64,000 nucleotides of DNA, from positions 31,420-95,419 of the forward strand of contig CAZPFU010000001.1 in assembly GCA_964585915.1 (NCBI GenBank), in the 5' to 3' direction. The translations under genes and the position numbers were made by a program. This document shows, piece by piece, positions 40,242 to 61,608 of this stretch (positions are counted from its first letter, which is position 1; every line of letters begins with the position of its first letter). Source of the DNA: an uncultured Methanomassiliicoccus sp. GTDB taxonomy: Archaea; Thermoplasmatota; Thermoplasmata; Methanomassiliicoccales; UBA472. Under the pieces are notes generated by a model that was given only the letters and a program-made list of their open reading frames with translations, ran no database searches and had not been told where the DNA came from.

Positions 40242-40314
40242 TCATTCCCCAGTACTTTAATGAAATCTTGAAATTGCTTATACACCAGATACACGAACGA
40301 TGGCAGCAATTTTG

Positions 40315-43300
40315 TCATCGCGGCACCTCCGCTCGTTGAATCAATTCAGCAAAATTGTAATTAACACTCGTAACCCCAAAGTCGGGCTCGCGCTGGAATG
40401 GTCTGCGGACGTAGTGGATTTTATATGAATCGTCTGGCATAAACTCTACAATTGCCAGAATGAAATCGTCGGGTTTGTTGAATGAATAAAGAATCTCGTT
40501 CTTTGTCACCGTTATTGTTTCAGCACCAGAGATTCGCCCTTTAACTTCTATGAAACGTAATTTTCCTGTACCTGGAATCCGACTTTCTACATCGTAACCC
40601 AACTTTTCAAGCTCACGGTCTATTGGATCGTATCCTAGGGTCCTTTCCACTTCCATTACTGCAGCCCTAGCCTTAGCAGCTGAAATTTGGGTGTCTATGG
40701 CCTGTGACGAACTTAGAGCTGATTTTCCAGCCATCTTGGCCAAGAGCCCGGCTGGGATGACCAACAGACCACCGAGGACCACTGGAGGCAATGCGGATAT
40801 CTGTCTTTCCAATTTCAATTCTGTCAAGCGTTTTTCCAGTCGTCCTTGTAAACCATCAGCCCGTTTACGGGCCTCCATCGAATTCAGGCGGGCATTGACC
40901 TTGCCTGCTTGCTCCTGAAGTTTGAGATCCTCTGCACGATGGTCCCAGTAAGCGATCTCCTTGGTCAATCTGTCCTTGACCGCCGCTTCTGTCTTGTCAA
41001 TGAGCTCCAACTTACCCGAACTGACCTCTTGCATATGCTCTGGAATTACATGCGCCACTGCATAGTCCAATACTTTTTGTTCCAATTCTCGTGTGATCCA
41101 TGCACATTCGGGGAGAGCAAGTAATGCATCCATTTTTGGTTCGTTTTCTCCAAGTGGCCGGTAGTCAAGATAAGGAGCATAATGCAAGTGTCGCGTGTTA
41201 TTCGATTCATCCATTTCTACATACAGCATCCTCTTGGAGATGAGGCGCCGTTCACCTGATTTAGTAACATTAGCATCTTGAATACCATGTTCCAGATAGA
41301 AAAGGATCCGTGGCTTGGTTCCGGGATCTCGCTCATCGACCAAGACAGTTCCCCGTCTCAGTAGGTCTTGATGACGCTCCGTGATCAGGTCGGTAACGGC
41401 TTCAAGCAAGGGATGGCCTGGACATATGAAGGCGGCCAATGGCTGGCCTTGGGGTGCTACCTGCGATTTGTCGAACGCGATTCGTTCATATCGAGATAAA
41501 ACTGGCTCCCCCGTGCCTATGAGCCGGTCCCGATTGCGTATGATGGATGGCACATGGGTGATCTCATAACGCCGAGGCTCACGCTGTTTCATCGTGCCGC
41601 CCAAACGCTGGAATGCTTCGGAGAAGAAAGACTCCACGTAATGTGGTTGGAGCCTTCGGGCTTCGGCACGCTCCATGTCTTCCCGAATTCTAAAGACGCG
41701 ACTTGCATCCATGGAATCGTGAGCCAGGGCTCGTTCCTCCAGAATATCCTGTAGCTTTTCCTTGTCAAATGCGTTTGCGACAACTGTCGTGAGGCGTGCC
41801 CTGACTTCGGGTGTTTCGCCGTATCGAATAGCTTCGATCAATAGGTCCCGAAGAGGTTTTCCTTCAAACTGAAGTCGACCTAAAACATCGAACACTCTGC
41901 CGCCCATTGCCAACCTTGCTTGTTCCAATTTTTCAAGCAATGTAAGATAGACGTCACCTTCCCTGGTCTCCTCGGCTACCAGATTCCAGAGATGGCAGAC
42001 TTCGGTCTGGCCAATACGATGAATTCGTCCAAAACGTTGTTCTATGCGATTCGGGTTCCAAGGCAGGTCATAGTTGACCATGAGATGAGCCCTCTGCAAA
42101 TTGATGCCTTCTCCGGCCGCATCAGTCGCGAGCAATACCTGTACCTCAGGATCGTGCTTGAATGCCTCCTGAGCCTTCATCCGTTCCTCGCGCCCCATGC
42201 TGCCGTGGATCAGTACAACGGACTCCTTCCGGCCTAAAAAAGTAGTAATTTTAGCATCCAGATAATTCAATGTATCGCGATGCTCTGTAAAAATCACGAT
42301 TTTCTGATGGGGGGAGGATACCGGTTTGGGAATCGTTCTAGGCATTTCGAGCTTATCCTTTGATATATCGCCATTCATCGCCGTCACTGGAGAGAATATC
42401 TCACCTAACAAACTCGCAAGTTCGCACCATTTTCTATCCTCCCCTGAATGACGAACAACGCCAGCTAACTTAACCAGGTGATCGAGGGTTTCGATCTCCG
42501 CATTTAGCTCGCTGATGGTACGAGATGCGGTGCTCTGATCCAGAATTTCCTCTTCAGCGATCTCGACCTCGTTGTCTGGTGCTTCATCCAGATCTTCTAC
42601 GTCTTCAGCATCTAATGGTTTGAATCCGAGATCTTGTGAGATCTGCCCCCCACGTTGTAACAGTTCCAGTTCTCTCAATTTACCCTCTAAACGCTGTTTG
42701 CGGCGTTGAAGGGACTGATAAATGGCTTCTGGCGAAGAGGCCAGGCGGCGTTGCAATATAGTTAATGCGAAACCTACCGTTCCAGCCCTTTTATCGTTCT
42801 GGAGCTTTTCGGCTCGATTGAACTCCTCGCGAACATATTTCGTTACTTCATAATAGAGCTGGGCTTCGGTTGAAGATAATTTATAAGGTACTGTGTACGC
42901 GATCCGCTCGGGGAATAATGCGGTGCCATCGAATTTGTAGAGATTCTCTTTGACCATCCGACGCATCATGTCAGAAACATCGGCTGCGTGAACCCCATCC
43001 CGGAATCGTCCTTCGAATCGATCCCCATCCAACAACGCCATGAACAGTTGAAAATCCTCTTCCTTGCCATTATGTGGCGTAGCGGTCATCAACAGAAAAT
43101 GGCGTGTCAATGTAGAGAGTAACTGACCTAACTTATAACGACGCGTATACTTGATTTCTCCACCAAAGATCGTTGCTGACATCTTGTGCGCTTCATCGCA
43201 AACGATCAAGTCCCACCGACAATCGGGCACTTTCAGCTTCTCTTGGACATCCTCATTACGCGAAAGTTTATCCAATCGAGCAATGACCAGATTGTTTTCC

Positions 43301-43890
43301 ATGAACCAATTGCCAGTGCGGGCGGCTTCTAATTTGTCGTTGGTCAGGATCTCGAATGGAAGATGGAACCGACGATATAGCTCGTCCTGCCATTGTTCCG
43401 CGAGGCTTCCTGGACATACCACCAGACATCTGTGCAGGTCGCCTCGTGCGATCAACTCCTTCATCAGAAGTCCCGCCATGATGGTCTTTCCCGCCCCTGG
43501 ATCGTCGGCCAACAGGAATCGAAGAGGCTGACGTGGCAGCATGGCATCGTAAACAGCGGTTATTTGATGAGGAAGGGGCTCGACAATGGAAGTGTGGACC
43601 GCGAGAACGGGATCGAACAAGTAAGCGAGATGGATACGGTTGGCTTCGGACACGAGTCGGAAAAGGTCTCCATCTCCATCGAAACTCCATGGACGACCTT
43701 CTTCTACAACTTCAATTCTTTTCTCATCGTGCCGATATAGAAGCTCACTTGCAGGTTTTCCATCTGGTGCCTTATAGGTAAGCTCTAAAGCTTCTGACCC
43801 AAACCAGCGGACATTAACGACTGTCACTAAACCATTGGGGAGAATACCACGGATTGATGCGTTTGGACGAAGATCCTCAAGTTTGCTCAT
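40315..43890 (-). CDS. SF2 (SNF2/DEAH-type) helicase with a C-terminal DUF3883/REase-like domain
   Basis: Motif I LLADDPGAGKT, motif II VCDEAHKM, motif III MTATPHNGK, motif VI QRFGRIHRIGQ. C-terminus GYDVESRIPGTGKLRFIEVKGR...TKNEILYS (D...E-x-K). Confidence 0.85.
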   Translation of the reverse strand: MSKLEDLRPNASIRGILPNGLVTVVNVRWFGSEALELTYKAPDGKPASELLYRHDEKRIEVVEEGRPWSFDGDGDLFRLVSEANRIHLAYLFDPVLAVHTSIVEPLPHQITAVYDAMLPRQPLRFLLADDPGAGKTIMAGLLMKELIARGDLHRCLVVCPGSLAEQWQDELYRRFHLPFEILTNDKLEAARTGNWFMENNLVIARLDKLSRNEDVQEKLKVPDCRWDLIVCDEAHKMSATIFGGEIKYTRRYKLGQLLSTLTRHFLLMTATPHNGKEEDFQLFMALLDGDRFEGRFRDGVHAADVSDMMRRMVKENLYKFDGTALFPERIAYTVPYKLSSTEAQLYYEVTKYVREEFNRAEKLQNDKRAGTVGFALTILQRRLASSPEAIYQSLQRRKQRLEGKLRELELLQRGGQISQDLGFKPLDAEDVEDLDEAPDNEVEIAEEEILDQSTASRTISELNAEIETLDHLVKLAGVVRHSGEDRKWCELASLLGEIFSPVTAMNGDISKDKLEMPRTIPKPVSSPHQKIVIFTEHRDTLNYLDAKITTFLGRKESVVLIHGSMGREERMKAQEAFKHDPEVQVLLATDAAGEGINLQRAHLMVNYDLPWNPNRIEQRFGRIHRIGQTEVCHLWNLVAEETREGDVYLTLLEKLEQARLAMGGRVFDVLGRLQFEGKPLRDLLIEAIRYGETPEVRARLTTVVANAFDKEKLQDILEERALAHDSMDASRVFRIREDMERAEARRLQPHYVESFFSEAFQRLGGTMKQREPRRYEITHVPSIIRNRDRLIGTGEPVLSRYERIAFDKSQVAPQGQPLAAFICPGHPLLEAVTDLITERHQDLLRRGTVLVDERDPGTKPRILFYLEHGIQDANVTKSGERRLISKRMLYVEMDESNNTRHLHYAPYLDYRPLGENEPKMDALLALPECAWITRELEQKVLDYAVAHVIPEHMQEVSSGKLELIDKTEAAVKDRLTKEIAYWDHRAEDLKLQEQAGKVNARLNSMEARKRADGLQGRLEKRLTELKLERQISALPPVVLGGLLVIPAGLLAKMAGKSALSSSQAIDTQISAAKARAAVMEVERTLGYDPIDRELEKLGYDVESRIPGTGKLRFIEVKGRISGAETITVTKNEILYSFNKPDDFILAIVEFMPDDSYKIHYVRRPFQREPDFGVTSVNYNFAELIQRAEVPR

Positions 43891-46686: not shown

Positions 46687-49600
46687 TTATTTTTTTCTCT
46701 TAACCCTCCATACTACGAGTCCAATTACAATACCGAGGATCACTATCACTATTATCGCGATGAGGATGAGATCAATCCCCACCTCGGGAACCTTCAGGCT
46801 GATCTCACCGCTTGGGTCACTGCTCGTATAGCAGTTATTGGCGACTATGTAATACCCATAAGACCCGCCGATCTCAATATCAAGGTCGTTATAGGCAGTG
46901 GAGTTGACCGTTGCTATCTTAATGAAATCGCCATCATTCGTCGACCGATAGATATCATATGAAGTTATCACCGAGCCCCCATCGTCATCGGGCGGCGACC
47001 AAGTGATCACGATCATCCCATCGACATAGGCCGCCTGAACGCTGCTTACTGTGCCCGGGCTGGTCACGGTTATCACTGTGAAATTGAAGTACCGTACGGT
47101 CTCCAAATTCCCAGCCTCGTCCATCGATCTATACCTAAGAACGTGTGACCCAGGTGATACTACCTCAAAATCCTCTGAGTAGTTTTGCCACACATCGTTA
47201 TCTAGGCTGTATAATATGGAATCGACCCCGCTGTTATCATCATGTGCTTGCAAGGTCAGCTTGAGCTGGTTTGCGTACACAACATCCTCGACAATCAAAC
47301 CATCGACTTCCAAATCTGTCGTAGGGGCAGCGCGATCCAATCCCCTGGATGCGTTGATCAATATAGTATTGCCAACGAGATCGCTCACCTGAAATTCTAG
47401 TAAATAGAAACCGTCCTCTGAGATAGAGAAGGGGTTCGAATAGATCATCCAATTTCCGCCGTTGAGACGATACTTTGCGCTCTCTACCCCCGCACCATCA
47501 TCAGAGCACACAAGCTCCACAACAAAGGTATCATTGTTCCAAATTCGGTCCCCACTGGAGAAATTCACCTCGCCCTCGGGGGCGGTGACATCGACCATTA
47601 TGATCTGATGTTGATGCAGACCCTCGTTCCCGGCATTATCGACGGCATAGTATTCCAGATCATATTCGCCGGTATCGTTGAAAAAGATCGTTCCATCGTA
47701 TTCCGTGAAATCACCAGGTCCAATACGATACCACAATGCACTGATCCCGCTCACGATGTCGACGGCAGACAGAGATGCCGCCACCGGCTCCTTATTCCAT
47801 CCTGAGTCGTTAAAAGAGTTGCTGAAAACCGCCACCGTTATAGGCATCGTTTCATCTATATTCACGGTGACGATCTCGGTCTGACCCTGGTTATTTGTGT
47901 TGTCTACAGAATAGAATTCCAGGGAATTGACACCGTCCTGGTCCAATGTCAAGGTGGTTGGAGATGCACCGATGGCCCATTGCCCGCTGTTCAATCGATA
48001 TCGGATCTCCTGGACACCGCTGCCAAGGTCTTCCCCACTTATGATTACGGTCACGGGAGTAACATACCATCCATTATCGCCCATGGTGCCATTGAGCGAT
48101 GCATTGGACGAAGGGGCGATCGTATCAACGATCACGACAGCGTCATCATTCTCCTTGTTCAACTCGAAATTCCCGGCTTGATCGACAGCGCATGATTTTA
48201 ATCCGTAGGTACCGTCCCCCCCGAGAACACTGGTGGCCAGTTGTATTGTTCCAGGTGCAAAAATGCCATCAGGGTGAGTAGCATCTTGATATGGTATGTA
48301 ATCAGTTGAACCGTCCGGCGCATAGAAGACGTATACGCCAGCGATTCCGCTTCCAACATCGAAAGCTGCGACCTGAACATCGAACGTTGAGGCGTTGGTC
48401 ATGGCAGGGGCGGTCAACAGGGAGACCGGGCGTCTGTATTCCGTTGCCCAGAGGGAGACATCATCGATATAGACACCTTCATACGGCCCTAGGCCAACGG
48501 TATTGTCGCTGTGGAAGGAAAATTCGAATGCCGTACTTCGGTTGTTCAATTGAACCGTCACTTCTTTCCAACCACCACTGTTCATCTGTGGCTGTGTCCA
48601 AATGGTATGCCATGAGGATGAATAGTACTCTCTCAAGACGAAATAATCATTGAAAGAGAGGGACCCCGTGACAGCCCAATAAGCGAACTCCATACTCATT
48701 TCATCATAAGCGGTGACATTGAGATCCAGGACCACATAGACATCAGCATCCATGCTCTCATCGTAATAATGGTTGACGGAGTTTAATTCCCCATTATGGC
48801 TATTCGATCCAGATTGAGCGCACCATGCGCTGTATCCCCCCGATAGTGAACGATAATCAGATAATCCCCAAGTATCCGTTCCTGCATCTGAATTCAAATC
48901 TCTGATGTACCAGCTTTGTTCCAGGATCCCGTCAAAATCTTCGTTGATTACCAGCGTACTGCTCCGCCAATTGGAGATGACGATTCCCGGAACGTCTACA
49001 CCGCCCCTCAAAGGGGCGGAAATATCTGAAGGATCCCCCTGAATATATCCCGCATCATACCGTTCTATCCTGAACTCCACGACGCTACCTGGGATGGTGC
49101 TACCATCAATTGATAGCGCGTAACTTCTTACCCCATTTTGAAATTCCGTGTCCAACTCGGTAATGTCCAGGCACATAAAATTGGGTAAAACATAATTAGC
49201 AACACCCCTCCAGAACGGCTCAATGGTGTTGTATATTCCTGATACAAACGAATACGCGCCGACCTGCACATCGCTATCTCGCGATGGGGAAGGTGTGAAT
49301 TCCCAAGCAGCGACCATCTTAGGTTGATAATCAACCTTATCGAGCAGGGTCAATGCCCCCAGGTGATTCCCGATCTCTTTGAAGGCCCCATAGGTCATCC
49401 AGAAATATCCATTATCACCCCATGCATCTCCCCAGGAATTCACGATCTTGAATGCACCGAGGTCTCCATCATCTGTTACGGTGTCATCATATCCTACGAT
49501 TGTCACCGCATGAGATGTGGTGGTCGAATCGTACTCCGCCGATGAAAGAATGAAGTTACCATCGGTAAAGGCGCTACCGGGATTACCATTGATAAAGGAA

Positions 49601-50433
49601 GAATCCATGGATATGCTTACGGGATGATTGGAGACCAGCATATCCTTGACAGTCTGTACCATGGTGCTCGCGTCATAGGGCATAATAACAAAATCATCGA
49701 TTCGATGCAAAGGCGCATCTCTCCAAGCCCCCTCTCCTCCCCAGTTCGTACTGTCCCCATTAACGAAAGGCATCTCGGCCCATGAGCTGACCCCAATATC
49801 CTTGGCGATCAATGCATTTTCTTCCTTATAGGAGCCGCTCTCATCCACCTTCACTTTATTGTATGTCCAGGATGGACTCATAAGGTGGGCATCATTGCCC
49901 GTGGAAGCATCCGTCCATCCGTTATCTACTGCTTCCAGATATCCATAGTTATAATAGATGACCGCGAAACCCGCACAAGCTCCCTCCTGCCCTTGGCTGC
50001 GAACCTGTGGGAAATATGGTTCTATTGAAAGATCAAATGATGTGGGCAGGTTTAGTGAAGAAGCAACAACCGGTTCGTAAATTAGGAACTTTCCTACAAG
50101 ACTTTCCAGATAATCAGCGTTGGGAACGAGGAGCCCAGTAGCATAAAGAGCACCAGGATAGTCTCCTGTTCTGTTAGTAATATTATCACCCTCTAACAAC
50201 TGTTGTTTCATCAATAGAATGTCAGAACTAGTTGCTAAGTGATAGTTGATCGGATCTAACACTGAATCGAGGTCATTTACCTGCATTTGGCCGTCTATGT
50301 CGTTTTCTTTCGAAGTAAGATCAGTTTGGTCATTCATGGAAAGGGTTGAGAGACCATTCGTGTCATTGTTCACTAGAGGTAAGGTTGTGAGAATTAGTGT
50401 GATCGCAAGTAGAAATGCGGTTATCATTTTCAT
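46687..50433 (-). CDS. Giant secreted, membrane-anchored papain-family (C1) cysteine protease with repeated Ig-like modules and an FN3 domain
   Basis: Signal peptide MKMITAFLLAITLILTTLPLV. Catalytic Cys QGQEGACAGFAV, His HAVTIVGYDD, Asn/Trp KIVNSWGDAWGDNGYFWMTY. Five repeats carry D.GSG(V/I)....Y(R/S)L..G.W...VDNAGN-type motifs. FN3 segment ITWSPPDDDGGSVITSYDIYRS. C-terminal TM plus RVKRKK. Confidence 0.8.
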   Translation of the reverse strand: MKMITAFLLAITLILTTLPLVNNDTNGLSTLSMNDQTDLTSKENDIDGQMQVNDLDSVLDPINYHLATSSDILLMKQQLLEGDNITNRTGDYPGALYATGLLVPNADYLESLVGKFLIYEPVVASSLNLPTSFDLSIEPYFPQVRSQGQEGACAGFAVIYYNYGYLEAVDNGWTDASTGNDAHLMSPSWTYNKVKVDESGSYKEENALIAKDIGVSSWAEMPFVNGDSTNWGGEGAWRDAPLHRIDDFVIMPYDASTMVQTVKDMLVSNHPVSISMDSSFINGNPGSAFTDGNFILSSAEYDSTTTSHAVTIVGYDDTVTDDGDLGAFKIVNSWGDAWGDNGYFWMTYGAFKEIGNHLGALTLLDKVDYQPKMVAAWEFTPSPSRDSDVQVGAYSFVSGIYNTIEPFWRGVANYVLPNFMCLDITELDTEFQNGVRSYALSIDGSTIPGSVVEFRIERYDAGYIQGDPSDISAPLRGGVDVPGIVISNWRSSTLVINEDFDGILEQSWYIRDLNSDAGTDTWGLSDYRSLSGGYSAWCAQSGSNSHNGELNSVNHYYDESMDADVYVVLDLNVTAYDEMSMEFAYWAVTGSLSFNDYFVLREYYSSSWHTIWTQPQMNSGGWKEVTVQLNNRSTAFEFSFHSDNTVGLGPYEGVYIDDVSLWATEYRRPVSLLTAPAMTNASTFDVQVAAFDVGSGIAGVYVFYAPDGSTDYIPYQDATHPDGIFAPGTIQLATSVLGGDGTYGLKSCAVDQAGNFELNKENDDAVVIVDTIAPSSNASLNGTMGDNGWYVTPVTVIISGEDLGSGVQEIRYRLNSGQWAIGASPTTLTLDQDGVNSLEFYSVDNTNNQGQTEIVTVNIDETMPITVAVFSNSFNDSGWNKEPVAASLSAVDIVSGISALWYRIGPGDFTEYDGTIFFNDTGEYDLEYYAVDNAGNEGLHQHQIIMVDVTAPEGEVNFSSGDRIWNNDTFVVELVCSDDGAGVESAKYRLNGGNWMIYSNPFSISEDGFYLLEFQVSDLVGNTILINASRGLDRAAPTTDLEVDGLIVEDVVYANQLKLTLQAHDDNSGVDSILYSLDNDVWQNYSEDFEVVSPGSHVLRYRSMDEAGNLETVRYFNFTVITVTSPGTVSSVQAAYVDGMIVITWSPPDDDGGSVITSYDIYRSTNDGDFIKIATVNSTAYNDLDIEIGGSYGYYIVANNCYTSSDPSGEISLKVPEVGIDLILIAIIVIVILGIVIGLVVWRVKRKK

Positions 50434-51168: not shown

Positions 51169-51321
51169 ATGAGGCTCCTGGGAACGGTAGAAGTGATGAC
51201 CAACAAGAGGGTCACTATTCCAAACAAATTGCTAGACGTCCTGAAAGCAACGGAAGGAGATTTTCTATTGTTCTATGAGGACGACGACGGCAAGATCGTC
51301 GTCAAGATGGAGAAAGGATAA
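51169..51321 (+). CDS. AbrB/SpoVT (MazE-like) family small DNA-binding protein
   Basis: 50-aa ORF below the ORF-track cutoff: MRLLGTVEVMTNKRVTIPNKLLDVLKATEGDFLLFYEDDDGKIVVKMEKG. AAGGTGG lies upstream. It is a paralog of the gene at 53906-54082. Confidence 0.55.
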   Translation: MRLLGTVEVMTNKRVTIPNKLLDVLKATEGDFLLFYEDDDGKIVVKMEKG

Positions 51322-51419: not shown

Positions 51420-52013
51420 TCACATTTTAAAATAATTTGTAGGCTCCATTCGAATATATGGTAGTACCACCGGTTTGAAATTATCAGGGCGAACCTCCAC
51501 CGTTCTATCATTTTTAGAATCGCTGCAGAACAATAATAAAAGGTCTATGACGCTCTTTCCGTGCATGTTGTGTAATATGAACTGCAGGTTCTTCGTCAGT
51601 TCGGATCCTTCTGGCGGGATGGTCTTTCCAGAGAATTCGTTTGAAAATTCTCCTCCCATTTTCTGCATCAGTTCCTGCCAAGGAACGCTTGGATTCCAGT
51701 GATCCATGTACCATCTGAATATCTTATGCCTATTAATCTGAGATTCTGTCAGATTGACACCTGTGGATGTGACCTCAGAAGACATATCCCATTTACTTTC
51801 CAAAAGGTACGCTGTAGTTTCGGTGATTATTATTGCATCGAATTCACCGAATAATGCCTTGCTTTTTCCACCGCGCCCAAAGCTGGGGCGATAGAACACC
51901 ATGCACCCATCCAAATCTGAAGTGTCATTGAATTTGGCAAGTATCTTATCAAGATCTTTGGTCAATGCCTTGTAAGTCAGCGCATCCTCACCATAACCAA
52001 TTATTTCACTCAT
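51420..52013 (-). CDS. Hypothetical protein with a PD-(D/E)xK nuclease-like motif
   Basis: 197 aa. FGEFDAIIITETTAYLLESKWD fits the D-x(n)-E-x-K pattern. No family recognised. Confidence 0.45.
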   Translation of the reverse strand: MSEIIGYGEDALTYKALTKDLDKILAKFNDTSDLDGCMVFYRPSFGRGGKSKALFGEFDAIIITETTAYLLESKWDMSSEVTSTGVNLTESQINRHKIFRWYMDHWNPSVPWQELMQKMGGEFSNEFSGKTIPPEGSELTKNLQFILHNMHGKSVIDLLLLFCSDSKNDRTVEVRPDNFKPVVLPYIRMEPTNYFKM

Positions 52014-53803: not shown

Positions 53804-53905
53804 GATAGACCTTCAGGAATGCAGACACTTGGAACCATATAATACTTCCTTACTTCCGTGATTCCTTGGCTTCCTATAAATTTACATTAAGGATACTAAT
53901 TGATT

Positions 53906-54082
53906 ATGCCAAAGGAGCGAGTTGGCGAGTCACGGGTCACCACCAAGGGTCAGATTACCTTGCCCAAGGACGTCAGGGAGGTCCTCAACGCGGAGGAGGG
54001 TGATTACATCATATTCTTCAAGGAGGAGGGCAGGGTCTATATCGAGGCGGGCTCGTTGATGACTAAAACCAGGGGTAAGTGA
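53906..54082 (+). CDS. AbrB/SpoVT (MazE-like) family small DNA-binding protein
   Basis: VTTKGQITLPKDVREVLNAEEGDYIIFFKEEGRVYIE is the classical SpoVT/AbrB loop-hinge-helix pattern. No toxin gene follows it. Confidence 0.65.
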   Translation: MPKERVGESRVTTKGQITLPKDVREVLNAEEGDYIIFFKEEGRVYIEAGSLMTKTRGK

Positions 54083-54293: not shown

Positions 54294-55457
54294 TCATGAG
54301 GTCAAATTAACATTTCTGAAATCTTCGATATCGTGTATGTATTCTGCCATCTCGTGCGATTTGATTCTTCGGTTCATTTTCACGTATTCGAGCTGGGAAG
54401 ATACTGCATCGTGTAGCTGGGAAGCCTTTCTAATTGCAGAATCATCGACCAATCCTAGGTCATTATAGCAATGGTTTGACAAGATCTGGCTTTGCGACAT
54501 CCCCTTACAGACCTTACAATTGCATTCGACATTATGGGCTGGCAGGGATCGCCATAGCTTAGAAGTGAGCATTGCTCCACCAGGATGACATGCCCAGGAA
54601 TAGTCATTTACCTGATCGAAGGAAGATGGATGAGGTTTATTCATCTGTTGTATAATCCATGCAGGATTGGCAGTTTTTGTCAGAGGAGTTATTGTATCAA
54701 TTCCATAACGCTGGAGCGTTATCGATGGTGTCTCGTTAATACCGGGGCTTACCTCTTTTTTACTCCGAGGAACACTAGAACAGTTCAGGATGGCCGGGAT
54801 ATCCCTGTTTTTCCACAGTTCTAAGTACTGATGAGGATGAGTGTCGGGATCCGCATATACCAAATTAATAATCTGTATAGAGCCTGTTTCGGCTAGACTT
54901 GATAGCATCTTAAGCTTATCCTTAAAGACCCTAACATCATCCGCTAAGGTTAGCTGAGGTATTACGCCCTTGCCAATTCCCTCCACTATGCCAAGTGAGT
55001 ATGCAATCGTCTTTTCCATAACAGATGGATTATTGGTCTGAAGTGGCGGCATAGAAACATAGTTAAGAGTCTTCACTCCTCGTTGCATCTCCAAGAACAG
55101 CTTGATTCTGGACAAATCTTGAACTGGTTGTCCAGGGACGTCGAGGATGGCGAAGTTCTCGAAACAACATGATAAATCGGCCATGCTCGTTAATCTGCGT
55201 CTGGCGTTGATCACTGAATCGTTCGTACCTAGGAATTTTTGAAGTCTCTGTCCACGAAGATCCAACTGAATGGCGCCCAAATTGCCATCGAGGGTGCCTC
55301 TGAAACCGAGATATTGCTTTGCACCGAATTCAACCGCCGAAAATGGCCGCGTCGGTGTCTCAAAGCTTGGCTTTGAACTTAGGCGTACAGAGAGAGTTCG
55401 ACCCCCCAACCCTGAGATTGTCTCATCCACACTGCCGACCTTGACCGAAGTAATCAC
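54294..55457 (-). CDS. Hypothetical protein with a C-terminal CxCxxC...H zinc signature (TGT/DpdA-like?)
   Basis: 387 aa. VECNCKVCKG...QLHDAVSSQLEYVKMNRRIKSHEMAEYI (54411-54524) is arranged like the zinc site and terminal helices of tRNA-guanine transglycosylase-fold enzymes. The start overlaps the upstream stop by 4 nt. Confidence 0.35.
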   Translation of the reverse strand: MITSVKVGSVDETISGLGGRTLSVRLSSKPSFETPTRPFSAVEFGAKQYLGFRGTLDGNLGAIQLDLRGQRLQKFLGTNDSVINARRRLTSMADLSCCFENFAILDVPGQPVQDLSRIKLFLEMQRGVKTLNYVSMPPLQTNNPSVMEKTIAYSLGIVEGIGKGVIPQLTLADDVRVFKDKLKMLSSLAETGSIQIINLVYADPDTHPHQYLELWKNRDIPAILNCSSVPRSKKEVSPGINETPSITLQRYGIDTITPLTKTANPAWIIQQMNKPHPSSFDQVNDYSWACHPGGAMLTSKLWRSLPAHNVECNCKVCKGMSQSQILSNHCYNDLGLVDDSAIRKASQLHDAVSSQLEYVKMNRRIKSHEMAEYIHDIEDFRNVNLTS

Positions 55458-56134
55458 TGCTCTTCCACCCTGATTTCATCGGTTTTAGTACGGCTGGTAA
55501 CTCTTCTTCTGTGTAGAACGCGTTCGAAAACAACGGATTCTTTGGCATAATCTGGGTATTTTTTATAGACGTATTTCATCAATCCTTTCGCGCCAAGCTG
55601 ATGCCAATCCAGTCTTGCCTTTTGATATTCATGTTTTTGAACCTGACTAAGTTTATTGAAAGAGCCTGCAGCTAAATCGACACCTTCTTTAGTTAATTCG
55701 AAATATTCCCCAGATGCCCCCTTCCTGCCCTCAGCGATGATGACTCCAGCGTCTTCAAAACCAATAATCACATCCTCGATTCTCTCAGAATACGGACCGA
55801 ACTTATAGGCTTTGAAACCAGGGTTTTCTGTAGGAATATTATGATCTGGAGCAAACTCGATGAATGTTAGGAACAACATCTTCTCGAAACAGGTTATTCC
55901 TACGACAGGCATCGGCTGGGCATACATCAATGCTAAAACCCAATCATGGACGAACATGAACTGATGTTTCTCTGAGTAATCCCATAGCTTTTGAAGCTCA
56001 CGCATTGGATAGATCACATATCCACAGACCTTGCATTGCAAGTAGTTGTACTCTATGCCATCTACCTTGCGATCAACACGCTCGTAATCGTGTTCGGCAT
56101 GCTCGATCTTGTGTTTTCTGGATTGCGCACTCAT
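55454..56134 (-). CDS. Panacea (DUF4065, SocA/GepA)-like protein with an N-terminal Zn-ribbon-like CxxC
   Basis: 226 aa. CKVCGYV, then FEKMLFLTFIEF...FKAYKFGPYSERIEDVI, which resembles the Panacea signature (KL.KLLY...AW..GPV....Y). Confidence 0.45.
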   Translation of the reverse strand: MSAQSRKHKIEHAEHDYERVDRKVDGIEYNYLQCKVCGYVIYPMRELQKLWDYSEKHQFMFVHDWVLALMYAQPMPVVGITCFEKMLFLTFIEFAPDHNIPTENPGFKAYKFGPYSERIEDVIIGFEDAGVIIAEGRKGASGEYFELTKEGVDLAAGSFNKLSQVQKHEYQKARLDWHQLGAKGLMKYVYKKYPDYAKESVVFERVLHRRRVTSRTKTDEIRVEEQ

Positions 56135-56454
56135 GTGATTGGTTCCAAGTGTGTTATCCTTAGGACACTTGCTCCATTTACATTATCTCTGTCTAACAAT
56201 ATACTAAAAATCTTCCTATCGCGTCTAGAGCAGACTTGCATTGTTGTTTTTCGGAAAGGTTTTCCTCCTGTTTTACCCTTCTTTTTTTTAGGACATTCTA
56301 TTGTATCTTTCAACATTCCGCAAACGGTTTCCGGGGACATTCTGAACTTAAATAAGTGAGCGGTCCCGGAATCACTCATATAGACTGGGAGTACCACTTT
56401 TTGATATTCGTAATCGCAAAATGGGTCATTACGACCCGTTAAATCCCCCACCAT
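56131..56454 (-). CDS. Small hypothetical protein, first gene of the three-gene operon
   Basis: 107 aa with a basic stretch (CPKKKKGKTGGKPFRK). 4-nt overlap with the next gene. Confidence 0.4.
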   Translation of the reverse strand: MVGDLTGRNDPFCDYEYQKVVLPVYMSDSGTAHLFKFRMSPETVCGMLKDTIECPKKKKGKTGGKPFRKTTMQVCSRRDRKIFSILLDRDNVNGASVLRITHLEPIT

Positions 56455-56611
56455 AATGAATATTGAAATAAATTATTCCTAAATTAAACTATGCATCAAT
56501 ATAAAAAAAAGGACCATTACGAGCTTATTGATAATTCTGAGTCGCTTAGAAATATCACAGCGGTAGTCGCATTTTTTACTCTAAATGAAGATATCCTCCT
56601 AGGTAACAACT

Positions 56612-58219: not shown

Positions 58220-59821
58220 TTGGGATTGCTAAATTCGTTAAAGAAGGCGTTAAACCCCCAGAGGAGGGAAGAGCGAAATAATGATGTACCCAGAATGGAA
58301 CCGAATCATGAGATAAACGGCAACAACACGGTCCCATATGGACCGTCTATGCACATTCCCATCCCAGGTAACTTAGAAGATAATTCATTAACGAATTCTC
58401 TTACTTCATACCGCACCGTGCACGGCATCCCCAAAGAAATCATCGATCTAATGTGGTTTAGAGATGGACCGATGAAGAATATTGATCGCGAGCCTCGATT
58501 TGTTCACAGGACCGATCTATTCACAATCGAGGTTTCCTTTCTTGGTTCTATTGAACCCAGCGCCATAGGGATCACTGATACAATCCATCCCCCGATGGAT
58601 GGAATGGTGGTCGAGAGACCTCCCTATTACCCGACATACGAAAGAATGACCCCGGAACAAAGATGGGTGTATCTCAGTTGGTTGATCGATGTGGACGAGG
58701 AAGTCAACATTGGATATGTCTTCGTTTTCTATTACGGCCTGGAGCGCCATCTTTTCCTCGGCCATTATGAAGCAGCGTTCGATATGATTCTGCGCCTCCG
58801 ACGTGTGCACCGTAATAGCTCTTTCCTCAGCTATTCATCGAACGCATTAATCGCGACGTGTATCATCCATAACCGGCCAGACCTGTTCGTTCGATTCCTG
58901 CAGAGTCTTGTGGAAGTCACTGATGAAGATGTGAACACCATGTACCTCTTGGCGAAACGCTCATTGGGACTGGAGCTAGAACCAAAGGAGATAATGTTAC
59001 TGGCTCGAGAAGTAGGGTTCACAAATAAACGGTATCTAGAAGGAGAAAGCGCACTTTTTGAGAACGAACTTAAGAGACGAATGGTGCAGGTACTGGGAAT
59101 AGAGACGATAGACCTGAGACCTTTGGCATTGAACGATACCCCGACCCACCCAGTGATGTTCTCAGCTAATTTTTCATTACCTGATAAACAACGTGTAGTC
59201 CATATCCCCGATCTGAGTCAGAATAAGGCGTTTCGTGCATTGGTGTATCAGCTCCTCTTGGACACCCATGATGTTGTTAAGGAAAGAGTGAAGGAATCGA
59301 GAAAGGCTGAAAAATCTAGTGATATACAAATGGACAATGAGTCTGAATTGCCGATTCCATGTCCGTACTGTAACAACCCAACCAAACCTCCCAAGACCAA
59401 GAGGGTTTGCCCATCATGCAAAAAGATCATTGTTGCTCGGACTGATCCCGATTCAAAAAAGAGGGTTTTCGTTACCGAAGAAGGAGCTGCAAGATTAGAT
59501 GCTAGAAAGAAGGACCTGCAAGTCATCAGGTTTGCTGTCAAGTGTATGTGGCCTTTTGGGATGACAGCTGAGCAGTTGGAAGGTATGACCGGGGAGATGC
59601 GGGATAAAGCTCCTTGCACCGTTAACGATGCAGTTTGGAAAATTGTCAATACGAGTATGCAGAAGTGTGAAGCAGAAGGTACGATACCGTCTCAATATTG
59701 TTATTTAGCAATGGCTAACTTTTTAGAGTTTGAAGGGAAGGATAAGAGCGAGATGATGGCGAAATATCAGGAAGAGGATAAGAAGGAGTTGGAGAAAAGG
59801 TATAGAAATTTTAACACATAG
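58220..59821 (+). CDS. TerB-N domain-containing protein with a C-terminal zinc ribbon
   Basis: YERMTPEQRWVYLSWLIDVDEEVNIGYVFVFYYGLERHLF matches the TerB_N signature. CPYCNN...CPSCKK follows later. TTG start preceded by AAGGGG. Confidence 0.6.
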   Translation: MGLLNSLKKALNPQRREERNNDVPRMEPNHEINGNNTVPYGPSMHIPIPGNLEDNSLTNSLTSYRTVHGIPKEIIDLMWFRDGPMKNIDREPRFVHRTDLFTIEVSFLGSIEPSAIGITDTIHPPMDGMVVERPPYYPTYERMTPEQRWVYLSWLIDVDEEVNIGYVFVFYYGLERHLFLGHYEAAFDMILRLRRVHRNSSFLSYSSNALIATCIIHNRPDLFVRFLQSLVEVTDEDVNTMYLLAKRSLGLELEPKEIMLLAREVGFTNKRYLEGESALFENELKRRMVQVLGIETIDLRPLALNDTPTHPVMFSANFSLPDKQRVVHIPDLSQNKAFRALVYQLLLDTHDVVKERVKESRKAEKSSDIQMDNESELPIPCPYCNNPTKPPKTKRVCPSCKKIIVARTDPDSKKRVFVTEEGAARLDARKKDLQVIRFAVKCMWPFGMTAEQLEGMTGEMRDKAPCTVNDAVWKIVNTSMQKCEAEGTIPSQYCYLAMANFLEFEGKDKSEMMAKYQEEDKKELEKRYRNFNT

Positions 59822-59967: not shown

Positions 59968-60115
59968 TCGTTATAAATATTAAAACACTGGCCTTTCATT
60001 TATTCAGTGATTTATGACTGAAGATGCACATATGAATTTTATATGGAAATGAGTGAGAAAACATCGCTAAGAGGTTTATATCAATATCAATATATGATGG
60101 AAATTGGTGGGGAGT

Positions 60116-60868
60116 ATGACAACTCAGCAATACCTGGAACAGGTGCTTGCCAAGTATAATCTCAGCAGCGCTCAGGAACAATCATTAAAGAATAAACGAA
60201 TGCGCGTTGAAGAATTTCTTCAGAAGAGATATCCGTCCAAGATCAGGAGCTTTTACTACTCGGGGTCCTATGCTAAGGACACTGCAATCAATCTGAAGTA
60301 CGATCTAGACCTCTGCATTTACTTCAAGCATAATGCCTTCCAGACCCTGGCTGAGATGTATAACTCGGTTTATGAGAACCTTAAGTGTATTGATCAAGTG
60401 AATAAACAGCGGGTCTCCATCCGCATGCCCTCGGGGAAGGAGTCCATAGACGTGGTCCCGGCAAGGTGTATTGACGATACTTCTGACTACGCCAATCTCT
60501 ATGTGACAACTGGCAGTCAGATCCAGACCAACATTAAGAAGCACAAGGAGTACATCAGTCAAAGTGGCTGTCGTCCGATAATTAAACTGATGAAAGTATG
60601 GAAAATTGAACACGGCATACATTACAAGTCGTTTGCCCTAGAGTTACTGACCATTCGAGCCTTGGATGGCTTTAAGGACCCTGATTATGGAGAGCGGTTC
60701 GTCCATGTTCTTAAGTTTATAAGGGACAATGTTGAAAATGTCCGCCTTATTGATCCGGCGAACCAAAGCAATAATGTGGCAGACCTCATCAGTGTCAATG
60801 ACAAGCTAAATATGAAGAATCAGGCAGCGGCCTCCCTGCAACAGACGTGGGAGCAAGTAATCTCATGA
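60116..60868 (+). CDS. SMODS/CD-NTase-like nucleotidyltransferase (Pol-beta fold with an OAS-like C-terminal helical domain)
   Basis: GSYAKDTAINLKYDLDL (G-S...D-x-D, 60263-60310), a third acidic residue in ESIDVVPA (60449-60451), and IIKLMKVWK...KSFALELLTIRAL. ATG at 60116 preceded by GGTGGGGAG. Confidence 0.6.
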   Translation: MTTQQYLEQVLAKYNLSSAQEQSLKNKRMRVEEFLQKRYPSKIRSFYYSGSYAKDTAINLKYDLDLCIYFKHNAFQTLAEMYNSVYENLKCIDQVNKQRVSIRMPSGKESIDVVPARCIDDTSDYANLYVTTGSQIQTNIKKHKEYISQSGCRPIIKLMKVWKIEHGIHYKSFALELLTIRALDGFKDPDYGERFVHVLKFIRDNVENVRLIDPANQSNNVADLISVNDKLNMKNQAAASLQQTWEQVIS

Positions 60869-61608
60869 GGTCAATGGCCCGCGAGCAAGACCCTCGGAAA
60901 CTTTTCGCAGGATTGCAGGAGGAGATGCGTTCCACACTTGCCGCGGGAAAAACGATAGATCATCCGGGAGCCAAGGGAAATGACTCGGAGATGAAATGGG
61001 TTGAATGGTTGCAGCAATATCTACCCAAGCGATACAGTGCCAGCAAAGCGTTCGTTCTCGACTCACAAGGGGGTTTGAGCCATGAGATCGACATAGTGAT
61101 TTACGATCGCCAATACTCACCCTTCTTATTCTTCCAGAAGGGGGCGTGCTATGTTCCTGCCGAGAGCGTGTACGCAGTTTTGGAGATCAAACAGGAGCTG
61201 AACCGGCGCCACATCAATTATGCGAAACAGAAGGTAAAGTCGGTAAGGTCGCTGCATCGGACCAGCGCCGATATCGTCCACGCGGGCGGCCGCCTTGACC
61301 CCAGGCCACCGATACCGATACTCTCTGGGATACTGACTTATGAGAGCGGGTGGGCCGATCCCATAGGGGTAGACCTAAAGAGATCGCTGAAGAGTCCGGA
61401 CGAGCTGGAACGCATAGATATGGGGTGTTCCATATGTAATGGGTCATTCGAGGCGGCCTATGATACTGCTGGTAATGCTACCTTAACTATTGCGGAGCGG
61501 GAGAGCGGGCTAATAATATTCTTCCTTAGAATGCTAGCAAGACTTCAAAAGGTAGGAACGGTCCCAGCAATGGACATAGACCAATACCTTAGGATGATCA
61601 AACCATAA
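60865..61608 (+). CDS. PD-(D/E)xK-type protein (DUF6602-like)
   Basis: HPGAKGNDSEMKWVEWLQQYLPKRY...SHEIDIVIYD...PAESVYAVLEIKQEL (D...E-x-K). The ATG overlaps the upstream TGA (ATGA). Confidence 0.55.
   Translation: MRSMAREQDPRKLFAGLQEEMRSTLAAGKTIDHPGAKGNDSEMKWVEWLQQYLPKRYSASKAFVLDSQGGLSHEIDIVIYDRQYSPFLFFQKGACYVPAESVYAVLEIKQELNRRHINYAKQKVKSVRSLHRTSADIVHAGGRLDPRPPIPILSGILTYESGWADPIGVDLKRSLKSPDELERIDMGCSICNGSFEAAYDTAGNATLTIAERESGLIIFFLRMLARLQKVGTVPAMDIDQYLRMIKP

Follow-up and report, generated by a model that had tools for sequence, protein, structure and literature searches.

A mostly archaeal branch of the tRNA-guanine transglycosylase superfamily, altered in its active site and paired with a non-homologous protein

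Enzymes of the tRNA-guanine transglycosylase (TGT) superfamily are known for tRNA modification, which yields queuosine and archaeosine, and for the DpdA-type insertion of 7-deazaguanine into DNA. The nucleophilic aspartate of TGT and DpdA forms a covalent ribosyl-enzyme intermediate. Archaeal defence systems are poorly charted. Here we describe a locus from an uncultured Methanomassiliicoccus sp. (contig CAZPFU010000001.1), located in a 64,000-nucleotide stretch of DNA referred to below as the window, that encodes a relative of these enzymes. Three genes on the minus strand (54294-56454) specify, from 5' to 3', a basic protein of 107 amino acids (56131-56454, ATG start), a partner protein of 226 amino acids (55454-56134, ATG start) and a protein of 387 amino acids (54294-55457, GTG start). 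The last of these is a remote member of the superfamily formed by TGT, its archaeal counterpart ArcTGT, and DpdA.

Three active-site aspartates, which serve in acid/base catalysis, in base recognition and as the nucleophile, never vary in TGT and DpdA (PMC10164549), and the ArcTGT pocket residues D95 and D249 are also kept in DpdA (PMC5699537). In conflict systems, namely Dpd and a predicted system related to BREX, TGT homologs are known only as DNA modifiers (PMC10164549, PMC12839542). Two further systems offer points of comparison. One is PanAT, a type II toxin-antitoxin system whose Panacea domain has as its hallmark a conserved GPV motif and a small β-sheet beside the central helix (PMC8832971). 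The other is PrrC, a latent anticodon nuclease embedded in a type IC restriction-modification (R-M) operon, EcoprrI (PMC3874165). The main text of the PanAT survey mentions no TGT-like toxin (PMC8832971). An earlier note on this DNA had read the locus as a TGT/DpdA-like enzyme under a Panacea-type antitoxin, a combination that it did not know to have been described. In the literature searched, we likewise found no description of a Panacea pairing or a toxin role for any TGT-fold protein. A literature look-up of the label 'YwgA' led nowhere.

Taken singly, the 387-residue protein has no match in Pfam, NCBIfam, PADLOC or PHROG scans, and none to the Pfam TGT family (PF01702) at E-values up to 1. 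Its full-length homologs share 37-52% identity with it, and an exhaustive hidden Markov model (HMM) search yields 137 cluster representatives, nearly all 370-420 residues long. PF01702 is matched by 18 of 109 relatives (best E = 3.7e-5), and every other Pfam family by at most two of the 109. The two PF01702 matches that were inspected cover the C-terminal part of the TGT model at 12-14 bits against a cut-off of 26.3 bits; the gathering threshold is reached neither by the protein nor by its relatives. Aligned by hhalign to a combined profile of bacterial TGT and ArcTGT, the family matches over 300 co-linear columns, residues 2-381, with a probability of 97.7% and E = 1.6e-12, at an identity of about 12-16% in the aligned region. 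The score of 96.1 compares with 21.8 for the reversed profile, 24.8 for the 226-residue partner family and 13.6 for Panacea against the same combined profile, and with a maximum of 64.6 for block shuffles in which fragments of the zinc motif were preserved. Alignment to 72 diverse ArcTGT catalytic domains gave a probability of 97.5% (E = 6.9e-12) over residues 309-380.

Shallower profiles were uninformative until the diverse ArcTGT profile was used, because true homologs scored no better. A shallow gammaproteobacterial TGT profile gave a probability of 27% (P = 7e-4) and a phage DpdA profile P = 0.056, while DpdA itself, compared with ArcTGT by the same method, reached P = 0.06. Sequence-profile searches of the PDB with the 387-residue protein returned nothing significant; ArcTGT appeared at E = 0.43, in three co-linear pieces. 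When the alignment was confined to the barrel (residues 1-300 against a profile without the zinc subdomain), the score was 30.8 (P = 1.2e-3) and the shuffle maximum 27.5, a signal that stems from the hairpin motif at the N-terminus. Phage DpdA, whose homology to TGT is accepted, scores only 25.5 against the combined profile. Therefore, the method is conservative for barrels this divergent.

The motifs of the two families follow each other in register. At the N-terminus, VKVGxxD...GGRxL...FETPTRP stands opposite FEixxxD...aGRiGrL...vETPafmPV of TGT. E43 falls opposite the conserved Glu of 'tpeEl', Q125 opposite the Q of 'eiQ..iGsDI', and YGID254 opposite 'GvDmFD'. C312, C314, C317 and H349 face the four zinc ligands of TGT and ArcTGT, and the last helices face 'iHNL......vkqAIkeGrl.e.v'. 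The kinship with TGT and DpdA proposed in the earlier note is thus supported by profile homology, the zinc signature and the helices that follow it corresponding to the C-terminal subdomain of TGT. The protein is laid out as an N-terminal β-hairpin (GGR...ETP), a predicted (β/α)8 barrel, D254 (in YGID) and the C-terminal zinc subdomain. Its AlphaFold2 model, built from 11 sequences, has a predicted local distance difference test score (pLDDT) of 68, falling below 50 in the zinc region, and contains three N-terminal strands, about eight alternating β/α units and a helical C-terminus; its Foldseek matches are triosephosphate isomerase (TIM) barrels. The best viral structural match of the model in BFVD is A0A8S5UU14, an uncharacterised protein of 394 residues from Siphoviridae sp. 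ctpyK9 (E = 6.9e-4, 321 columns).

With ArcTGT and TGT, the protein shares the N-terminal hairpin (gR...ETP), the predicted (β/α)8 core, the GxD nucleophile, the CxCxxC...H subdomain and the 'HN/HD...I..g.l..y' helices. In contrast to them, it has no PUA or C-terminal tRNA-binding domains and carries a 28-residue insertion between the nucleophile and the zinc site. The family differs further in remaining below the Pfam threshold, in lacking the acid/base and base-recognition aspartates, and in its location in variable regions, where each locus examined also encodes a winged-helix partner.

The active site of the family departs from that of TGT and DpdA. The putative nucleophile D254, the counterpart of D280 in Z. 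mobilis, D249 in P. horikoshii and D256 in DpdA, is kept in 108 of 109 members. The acid/base aspartate (in TDSGG; D95 in both P. horikoshii and DpdA) is not conserved in the 109-member alignment. The segment opposite TDSGG reads CCFENF in the window clade, and between residues 44 and 169 Asp and Glu together account for at most 54% at every position. E/D100 could be a substitute acid/base residue in the window clade, in a stretch where the local alignment is of low confidence. The base-recognition aspartate (in FDE/LDIP; D130 in both P. horikoshii and DpdA) is likewise not conserved in this alignment: the opposing segment is VSMPP in the window protein, with P137 conserved and no Asp. Apart from D254, no Asp exceeds 61% across the family. 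At D170, where another strand ends, 61% of members have Asp and the window protein has Thr. Conservation above 90% is also seen at R20, T34, P35, R37, N79, Q125, P137, H349, E357 and Y373. In the model, P137, T/D170, Y201, V229-R231 and D254 lie at or just after strand ends, positions that would correspond to the catalytic face of a TIM barrel.

Because two of the three aspartates invariant in TGT and DpdA are not conserved, the 387-residue protein is not a canonical guanine-exchange enzyme, and the nucleobase exchange suggested by the earlier note cannot simply be assumed. The near-invariance of D254, together with the several polar residues conserved above 90%, argues for an active site under selection. 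From these conservation patterns, the protein is probably an active enzyme with a covalent Asp-ribosyl mechanism, whose base specificity or second half-reaction is probably unlike the exchange of guanine for 7-deazaguanine. Within the close clade, the zinc ligands C312, C314, C317 and H349 do not vary. Across the family the zinc-site cysteines are found in 63 of 109 members and are absent from 46, including an Archaeoglobus clade; these 46 still keep the downstream 'SKVHE...SxxEF' helix. Judging from the alignment, both the active site and the zinc site are remodelled between clades.

The second defining feature of the family is its partner. HMMs of the three families were used to annotate all fetched loci, 13 retrieved via the enzyme and 9 via the partner. 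Each of these loci, whichever gene led to it, has both the TGT-like gene and the partner gene, on one strand. Where the two are adjacent, they overlap by 1-32 nucleotides (nt) or are separated by at most 3 nt. One locus, L118, is an exception in that an unrelated 189-aa gene lies between the partner (probability 99.8) and the TGT-like gene. The pairing persists at enzyme identities of about 17-25%, in L111, L117 (partner probability 99.9), L118 and L221. The conserved unit is therefore the pair of winged-helix and TGT-like proteins, and the third gene varies by clade. The gene trio surveyed here as a possible conserved unit was consequently upheld in part: the pair recurs in every locus, and the 107-aa gene is limited to one clade. 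In one metagenome-assembled genome (MAG) of an uncultured archaeon, the TGT-like gene is split into ORFs of 87 and 298 residues (L110 6004-7160 and L120 7303-8459), with the partner and small genes intact. The split could stem from a frameshift or an assembly error, or the gene could be a pseudogene.

The 107-aa gene is present in all Methanomassiliicoccales-type loci and is replaced by unrelated genes in distant clades. It was considered as a universal third partner, a role that we rejected since the 158-aa and 189-aa genes of distant loci are not homologous to it. Seven homologs of the 107-residue protein (22-45% identity) keep C54-P55, C75, H102 and P105 invariant. These residues may form a metal site, and the protein is probably metal-binding. 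It also has a lysine-rich loop, PKKKKGKTGGKPFRK. No Pfam, NCBIfam, PADLOC, PHROG or PDB-sequence match was found for it.

The module is found almost only in archaea. The nearest genome to the window is a Methanomassiliicoccales MAG at 98% identity, and the other named sources are Methanomassiliicoccaceae, Methanomethylophilaceae, Ca. Methanoplasma, Thermoplasmata, Ca. Methanoperedens and Archaeoglobus. Two bacterial labels belong to short MAG contigs and may reflect mis-binning. In the databases all three protein families are named 'hypothetical protein' and have no Pfam annotation. Searches of INPHARED phages, PLSDB plasmids and 2.9 million IMG/VR contigs found no relatives of the module, and those of the phage genomes by tblastn gave no match to the 387-aa family. 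On the ground of these collections, a virus-borne analogue of anti-restriction DpdA was rejected.

Flanking genes differ between loci, and the type of neighbour recurs. IS66-type transposases and tyrosine integrases lie near module loci, as do many ORFans. One locus has a fused methyltransferase-restriction endonuclease beside the module, another (L004) is adjoined on the opposite strand by a complete type I R-M system, and a third (L221) has a PIN toxin-antitoxin pair and a DDE transposase beside it. In the Archaeoglobus-like clade the module is part of an operon whose genes overlap by 4 nt and stand in the order hsdR-hsdM-[158 aa]-[partner]-[TGT-like]-hsdS. In L219 (1932-9449) this type I R-M operon is intact, with the trio between hsdM and hsdS, and the surrounding island contains three HepT/MNT pairs, a YgjP-like gene and a gene for an EVE protein, a modified-base reader. 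Some other loci are flanked by housekeeping genes (ribosomal proteins, enolase, CN-hydrolase, M18 peptidase). In none of the neighbourhoods examined did we find genes for preQ0, queuosine or archaeosine precursors (FolE, QueC/D/E) or for DpdB or DpdC, and the loci compared have no conserved restriction gene dedicated to the pair.

We propose, with a probability of roughly 0.4, that this is an accessory module of archaea, mobile by horizontal transfer and with two co-translated core proteins, that would act as a conflict effector of a toxin-antitoxin-like or abortive-infection kind. This proposal is ranked first because of the architecture of the pair, its patchy and mobile distribution, the clade embedded in R-M operons, the absence from the viruses searched and the absence of precursor genes. 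The TGT-like protein would use D254 to attack the N-glycosidic bond that holds a base in tRNA or DNA. Because neither the guanine-recognition nor the acid/base aspartate is conserved, it would act on a different base, or would stop at excision or at a covalent adduct. The winged-helix partner would bind the TGT-like protein and restrain or target it, in a manner similar to an antitoxin or to the control of a PrrC-like latent effector, and in genome conflict the module would cause addiction or abortive infection. Toxin and antitoxin roles for the two proteins are plausible from the genomic context. We know of no toxin for which covalent Asp-ribosyl/glycosidic-bond chemistry of this kind has been described.

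The resemblance to PrrC concerns genetic position: in the Archaeoglobus-like clade, the pair sits inside hsdR-hsdM-...-hsdS, as PrrC does in EcoprrI. In addition, TGT enzymes act on tRNA, as does PrrC. The folds are unrelated, since PrrC is an ABC-ATPase/HEPN nuclease, and the window copy lies outside an R-M operon. A more specific version of our proposal is unlikely in its full form. In it, an archaeal module for immunity or addiction has a TGT-fold effector, which its partner, and in some lineages also the type I R-M complex, would keep inactive until release, whereupon the effector would excise or swap a tRNA or DNA base through a covalent Asp-ribosyl intermediate.

Several observations weigh against our proposal. 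Within the barrel, sequence similarity to TGT is weak (P of about 1e-2 to 1e-3). Foldseek searches of the PDB with the model return generic TIM barrels at E-values of 3e-3 or worse, and in the BFVD structural search a phage TGT ranks only 45th. That two of the three aspartates are not conserved could mean other chemistry or a non-catalytic state, and the window clade also lacks D170 and H246, which are present in 61% and 79% of the wider family. Embedding in R-M operons is confined to one clade of closely related, zinc-less members (L117, L219 and L220), and the window copy is flanked by RmuC on one side and by unrelated genes on the other. An hhalign comparison of the 226-aa family with a 12-sequence SocA/Panacea profile gave a score of 20.2 (P = 0.042), which is within the null range defined by block shuffles (up to 23.6) and unrelated-family negative controls (17.8-19.9). 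Finally, a winged-helix partner would fit equally well as the DNA-targeting subunit of a modification enzyme.

This last point leads to the alternative that we rank second, which we consider possible though doubtful. The locus would be a DpdA-type module for modification of DNA (or RNA), in which a base is exchanged for a modified one such as preQ0 made by the host in its archaeosine pathway. The winged-helix and small basic proteins would supply DNA binding or targeting, and the mark would protect from restriction or label self. Homology to TGT and DpdA with the nucleophile aspartate and zinc site retained is in line with this idea, as is the DNA-binding type of the partner's fold. DpdA is, like the present protein, a stand-alone barrel without tRNA-binding domains that occurs in genomic islands and conflict contexts, and it requires a non-homologous protein, DpdB, to act on DNA (PMC10164549), just as the 387-aa family is paired with a non-homologous protein. 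Phage 'singleton' DpdAs rely on a host-made precursor (PMC6884629). The placement of the module inside or beside R-M operons, and the EVE gene near it in L219, also suit a modification system. However, DpdA keeps all three aspartates, D95, D130 and D256 (PMC10164549), whereas in the 387-aa family the nucleophile alone is retained. This alternative is weakened by the missing guanine-binding and acid/base residues and by the absence of a cognate restriction component conserved with the pair. It is further at odds with the absence of Que, FolE, DpdB or DpdC-type genes from every locus examined, and with the absence of the module from the viral collections searched, where anti-restriction DpdAs occur.

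A second alternative depends on the nature of the partner. According to this, the locus is a classical PanAT-type type II toxin-antitoxin system, in which the 226-residue protein would be a divergent Panacea antitoxin that neutralizes a TGT-fold toxin by binding it. The gene arrangement is similar, with a small partner gene directly upstream of a larger enzyme gene and a 4-nt overlap, as in the antitoxin-then-toxin order of phage phi52237 PanAT; a variable third gene is also allowed in the PanAT survey (PMC8832971). The AlphaFold model of the 226-residue protein (pLDDT 82.6) has a zinc-ribbon-like N-terminus of two hairpins, followed by a winged-helix core and a long helix, and ends in a basic, disordered tail, RVLHRRR. 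The hairpins bear H12/H15 and C34-xx-C37, for which distant relatives have CxC...CxxC. The core carries the invariant motif ENPGFxxYxFGPY, and PxENPGFxAYKFGPY aligns in register with PlvNepFeAWRFGPV of the validated phi52237 PanA, so that a short F-x-A-[WY]-x-[FY]-G-P-[VY] motif is common to the partner and Panacea. The invariant G113-P114-Y115 precedes a helix (114-128) in the model, and the GPV strand is a Panacea hallmark (PMC8832971). Sub-threshold PF13274 (Panacea) matches occur in 12 of 84 relatives (best E = 6.1e-4), and smaller tests gave P = 0.015 for the validated PanA alone and P = 0.022 for a four-sequence profile.

Against this, the window protein has no match to PF13274 at E-values up to 1, and none of its 92 homologs has a precomputed Pfam annotation. 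DUF4364 (18 of 84) and DUF6429 (16 of 84), also below threshold, are matched by its relatives more often than Panacea. The score of 20.2 quoted above was obtained with the larger profile, composed of the validated phi52237 gp9, two close metagenomic or viral-contig relatives and nine plasmid proteins annotated as SocA/DUF4065, and shuffled sequences exceeded it. The overall fold is that of a generic winged helix, for which Foldseek gave weak matches to MarR, PadR and F-93 proteins, and the N-terminal zinc ribbon, long C-terminal helix and basic tail set the partner apart from PanAT antitoxins. Thus, the identification of the middle protein as Panacea/DUF4065 in the earlier note was not borne out, and we rejected membership as demonstrable. 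The 226-residue protein is most safely described as a winged-helix protein of its own family that has one short motif in common with Panacea. A PanAT system in the strict sense is therefore an improbable description of the locus.

The partner has other database matches as well. Significant ones, down to 1e-13, were found to phrog_24871 and phrog_14939, phage families of unknown function, and the PADLOC candidate PDC-M19A was matched at 2.4e-7. The region around GPYSER weakly matches the toxin-binding C-terminal domain of DarG (PADLOC E = 0.006; PDB 7yk3_B E = 0.6-1.1), which would suit an antitoxin. These DarG matches are not significant; DarTG shares with the module a concern with nucleic-acid base chemistry, whereas the module has neither a macrodomain nor a DarT-like toxin. 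As a separate observation, residues 79-205 weakly match the C-terminal end (429-550 of 554) of a PADLOC model of the type I specificity subunit (E = 0.0095), a hint that some HsdS proteins may carry a fused domain of the partner type.

The least likely explanation is that the 387-residue protein is a housekeeping or non-catalytic paralog, either a TGT-like scaffold without activity or an enzyme of tRNA modification that is particular to a lineage and has no role in conflict, which would suit the loss of two canonical catalytic aspartates and the housekeeping flanks of some loci but fits poorly with a nucleophile retained in 108 of 109 members beside several highly conserved polar residues, with the patchy distribution and non-conserved flanks, with the association with integrases, transposases, toxin-antitoxin pairs and R-M systems, and with the possibly pseudogenised copy.

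At the level of the window, the reading frames given in the earlier note were confirmed as three minus-strand ORFs linked by 4-nt start/stop overlaps, and full-length homologs at 22-62% identity exist for all three. The 107-aa and 226-aa genes overlap in an ATGA at 56131-56134 (minus strand; ATG 56134-56132, TGA 56133-56131), and the 226-aa and 387-aa genes in a GTGA at 55454-55457 (minus strand; GTG 55457-55455, TGA 55456-55454). The proposed co-translation stands as well, in that the genes are tightly coupled and their order, with overlapping or abutting junctions, recurs in every related locus; between the small and middle genes, overlaps of 4 nt or more are seen in related loci too. A purine-rich Shine-Dalgarno-like stretch, GGGTGGAAGAG (55470-55460, minus strand), can be read in the sequence about 4-13 nt 5' of the GTG of the 387-aa gene. 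Upstream of the 107-aa gene lies a 157-bp spacer (56455-56611, minus strand) that by eye is AT-rich and contains two TATA-like elements, TTTTTTTTATATT (about 56510-56498) and TTTAATTTAGG (about 56488-56478), on the minus strand. From these runs, the spacer is the probable promoter of the operon. All motifs quoted previously are present, namely CKVCGYV and FEKMLFLTFIEF...FKAYKFGPYSERIEDVI in the middle protein and C312-x-C314-xx-C317...H349 and LHDAVSSQLEYVKMNRRIKSHEMAEYI in the 387-residue protein. Base composition is ordinary, the trio having a GC content of 0.43-0.45 in surroundings of 0.37-0.50, and the idea of an atypical composition was rejected for this reason.

The neighbours of the trio in the window are RmuC, a TerB_N protein, a SMODS and DUF6602 pair, MazE/AbrB-like ORFs and a NUDIX gene. 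The earlier placement of the locus in a defence island next to RmuC holds for the neighbour, RmuC (PF02646, E = 3e-100) adjoining the trio; the island is plausible. Divergent from RmuC is a gene for a 533-residue protein (58220-59821, plus strand) with a TerB_N domain (E = 5e-14) and a C-terminal zinc-ribbon-like CPYC...CPSC motif. Farther on, a SMODS gene (60104-60868, plus strand; PF18144, E = 1e-10) overlaps a DUF6602 gene (60847-61608, plus strand; E = 1e-31) by 22 nt; the pair is 99% identical in a related MAG and may be a minimal nucleotidyltransferase-effector defence pair.

On the other side of the trio, small ORFs of the AbrB/MazE (SpoVT-like) type occur at 51169-51321 and 53900-54082, both on the plus strand. 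The second (PF04014, E = 3e-9) lies a short way past the 3' end of the TGT-like gene and is read from the other strand, and no obvious toxin gene was seen beside either. Between them, a 197-aa ORF (51420-52013, minus strand) has no Pfam match and, in BLASTP, no match in the 98%-identical MAG loci L109 and L119; its region appears to be variable between strains. By eye, it contains a D...E-x-K pattern (FDAIIITE...LLESKW) reminiscent of PD-(D/E)xK nucleases. The gene at 46687-50433 (minus strand) encodes a secreted or surface protein of 1248 residues with a C-terminal transmembrane anchor, in which a papain-like segment (QGxxGxCxxF...) followed by many Ig-like repeats can be discerned by eye. 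Two further very large ORFs lie upstream of this gene, at 37404-43890.

The 387-aa family is a new, unannotated and mostly archaeal branch of the TGT superfamily that combines an altered active site with a fixed non-homologous partner and a location in variable regions. The branch comprises about 137 cluster representatives without Pfam or NCBIfam coverage and keeps the aspartate of covalent catalysis, while the machinery of guanine recognition is lost. The pair may be a new kind of conflict module. If the enzyme is active, base-exchange or base-excision chemistry would reach a new substrate and a new role in archaea, as a toxin, in abortive infection or in the placement of a new epigenetic mark. 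Even the conservative outcome would be useful, as it provides a family definition for three groups of proteins now called hypothetical and a testable residue, D254.

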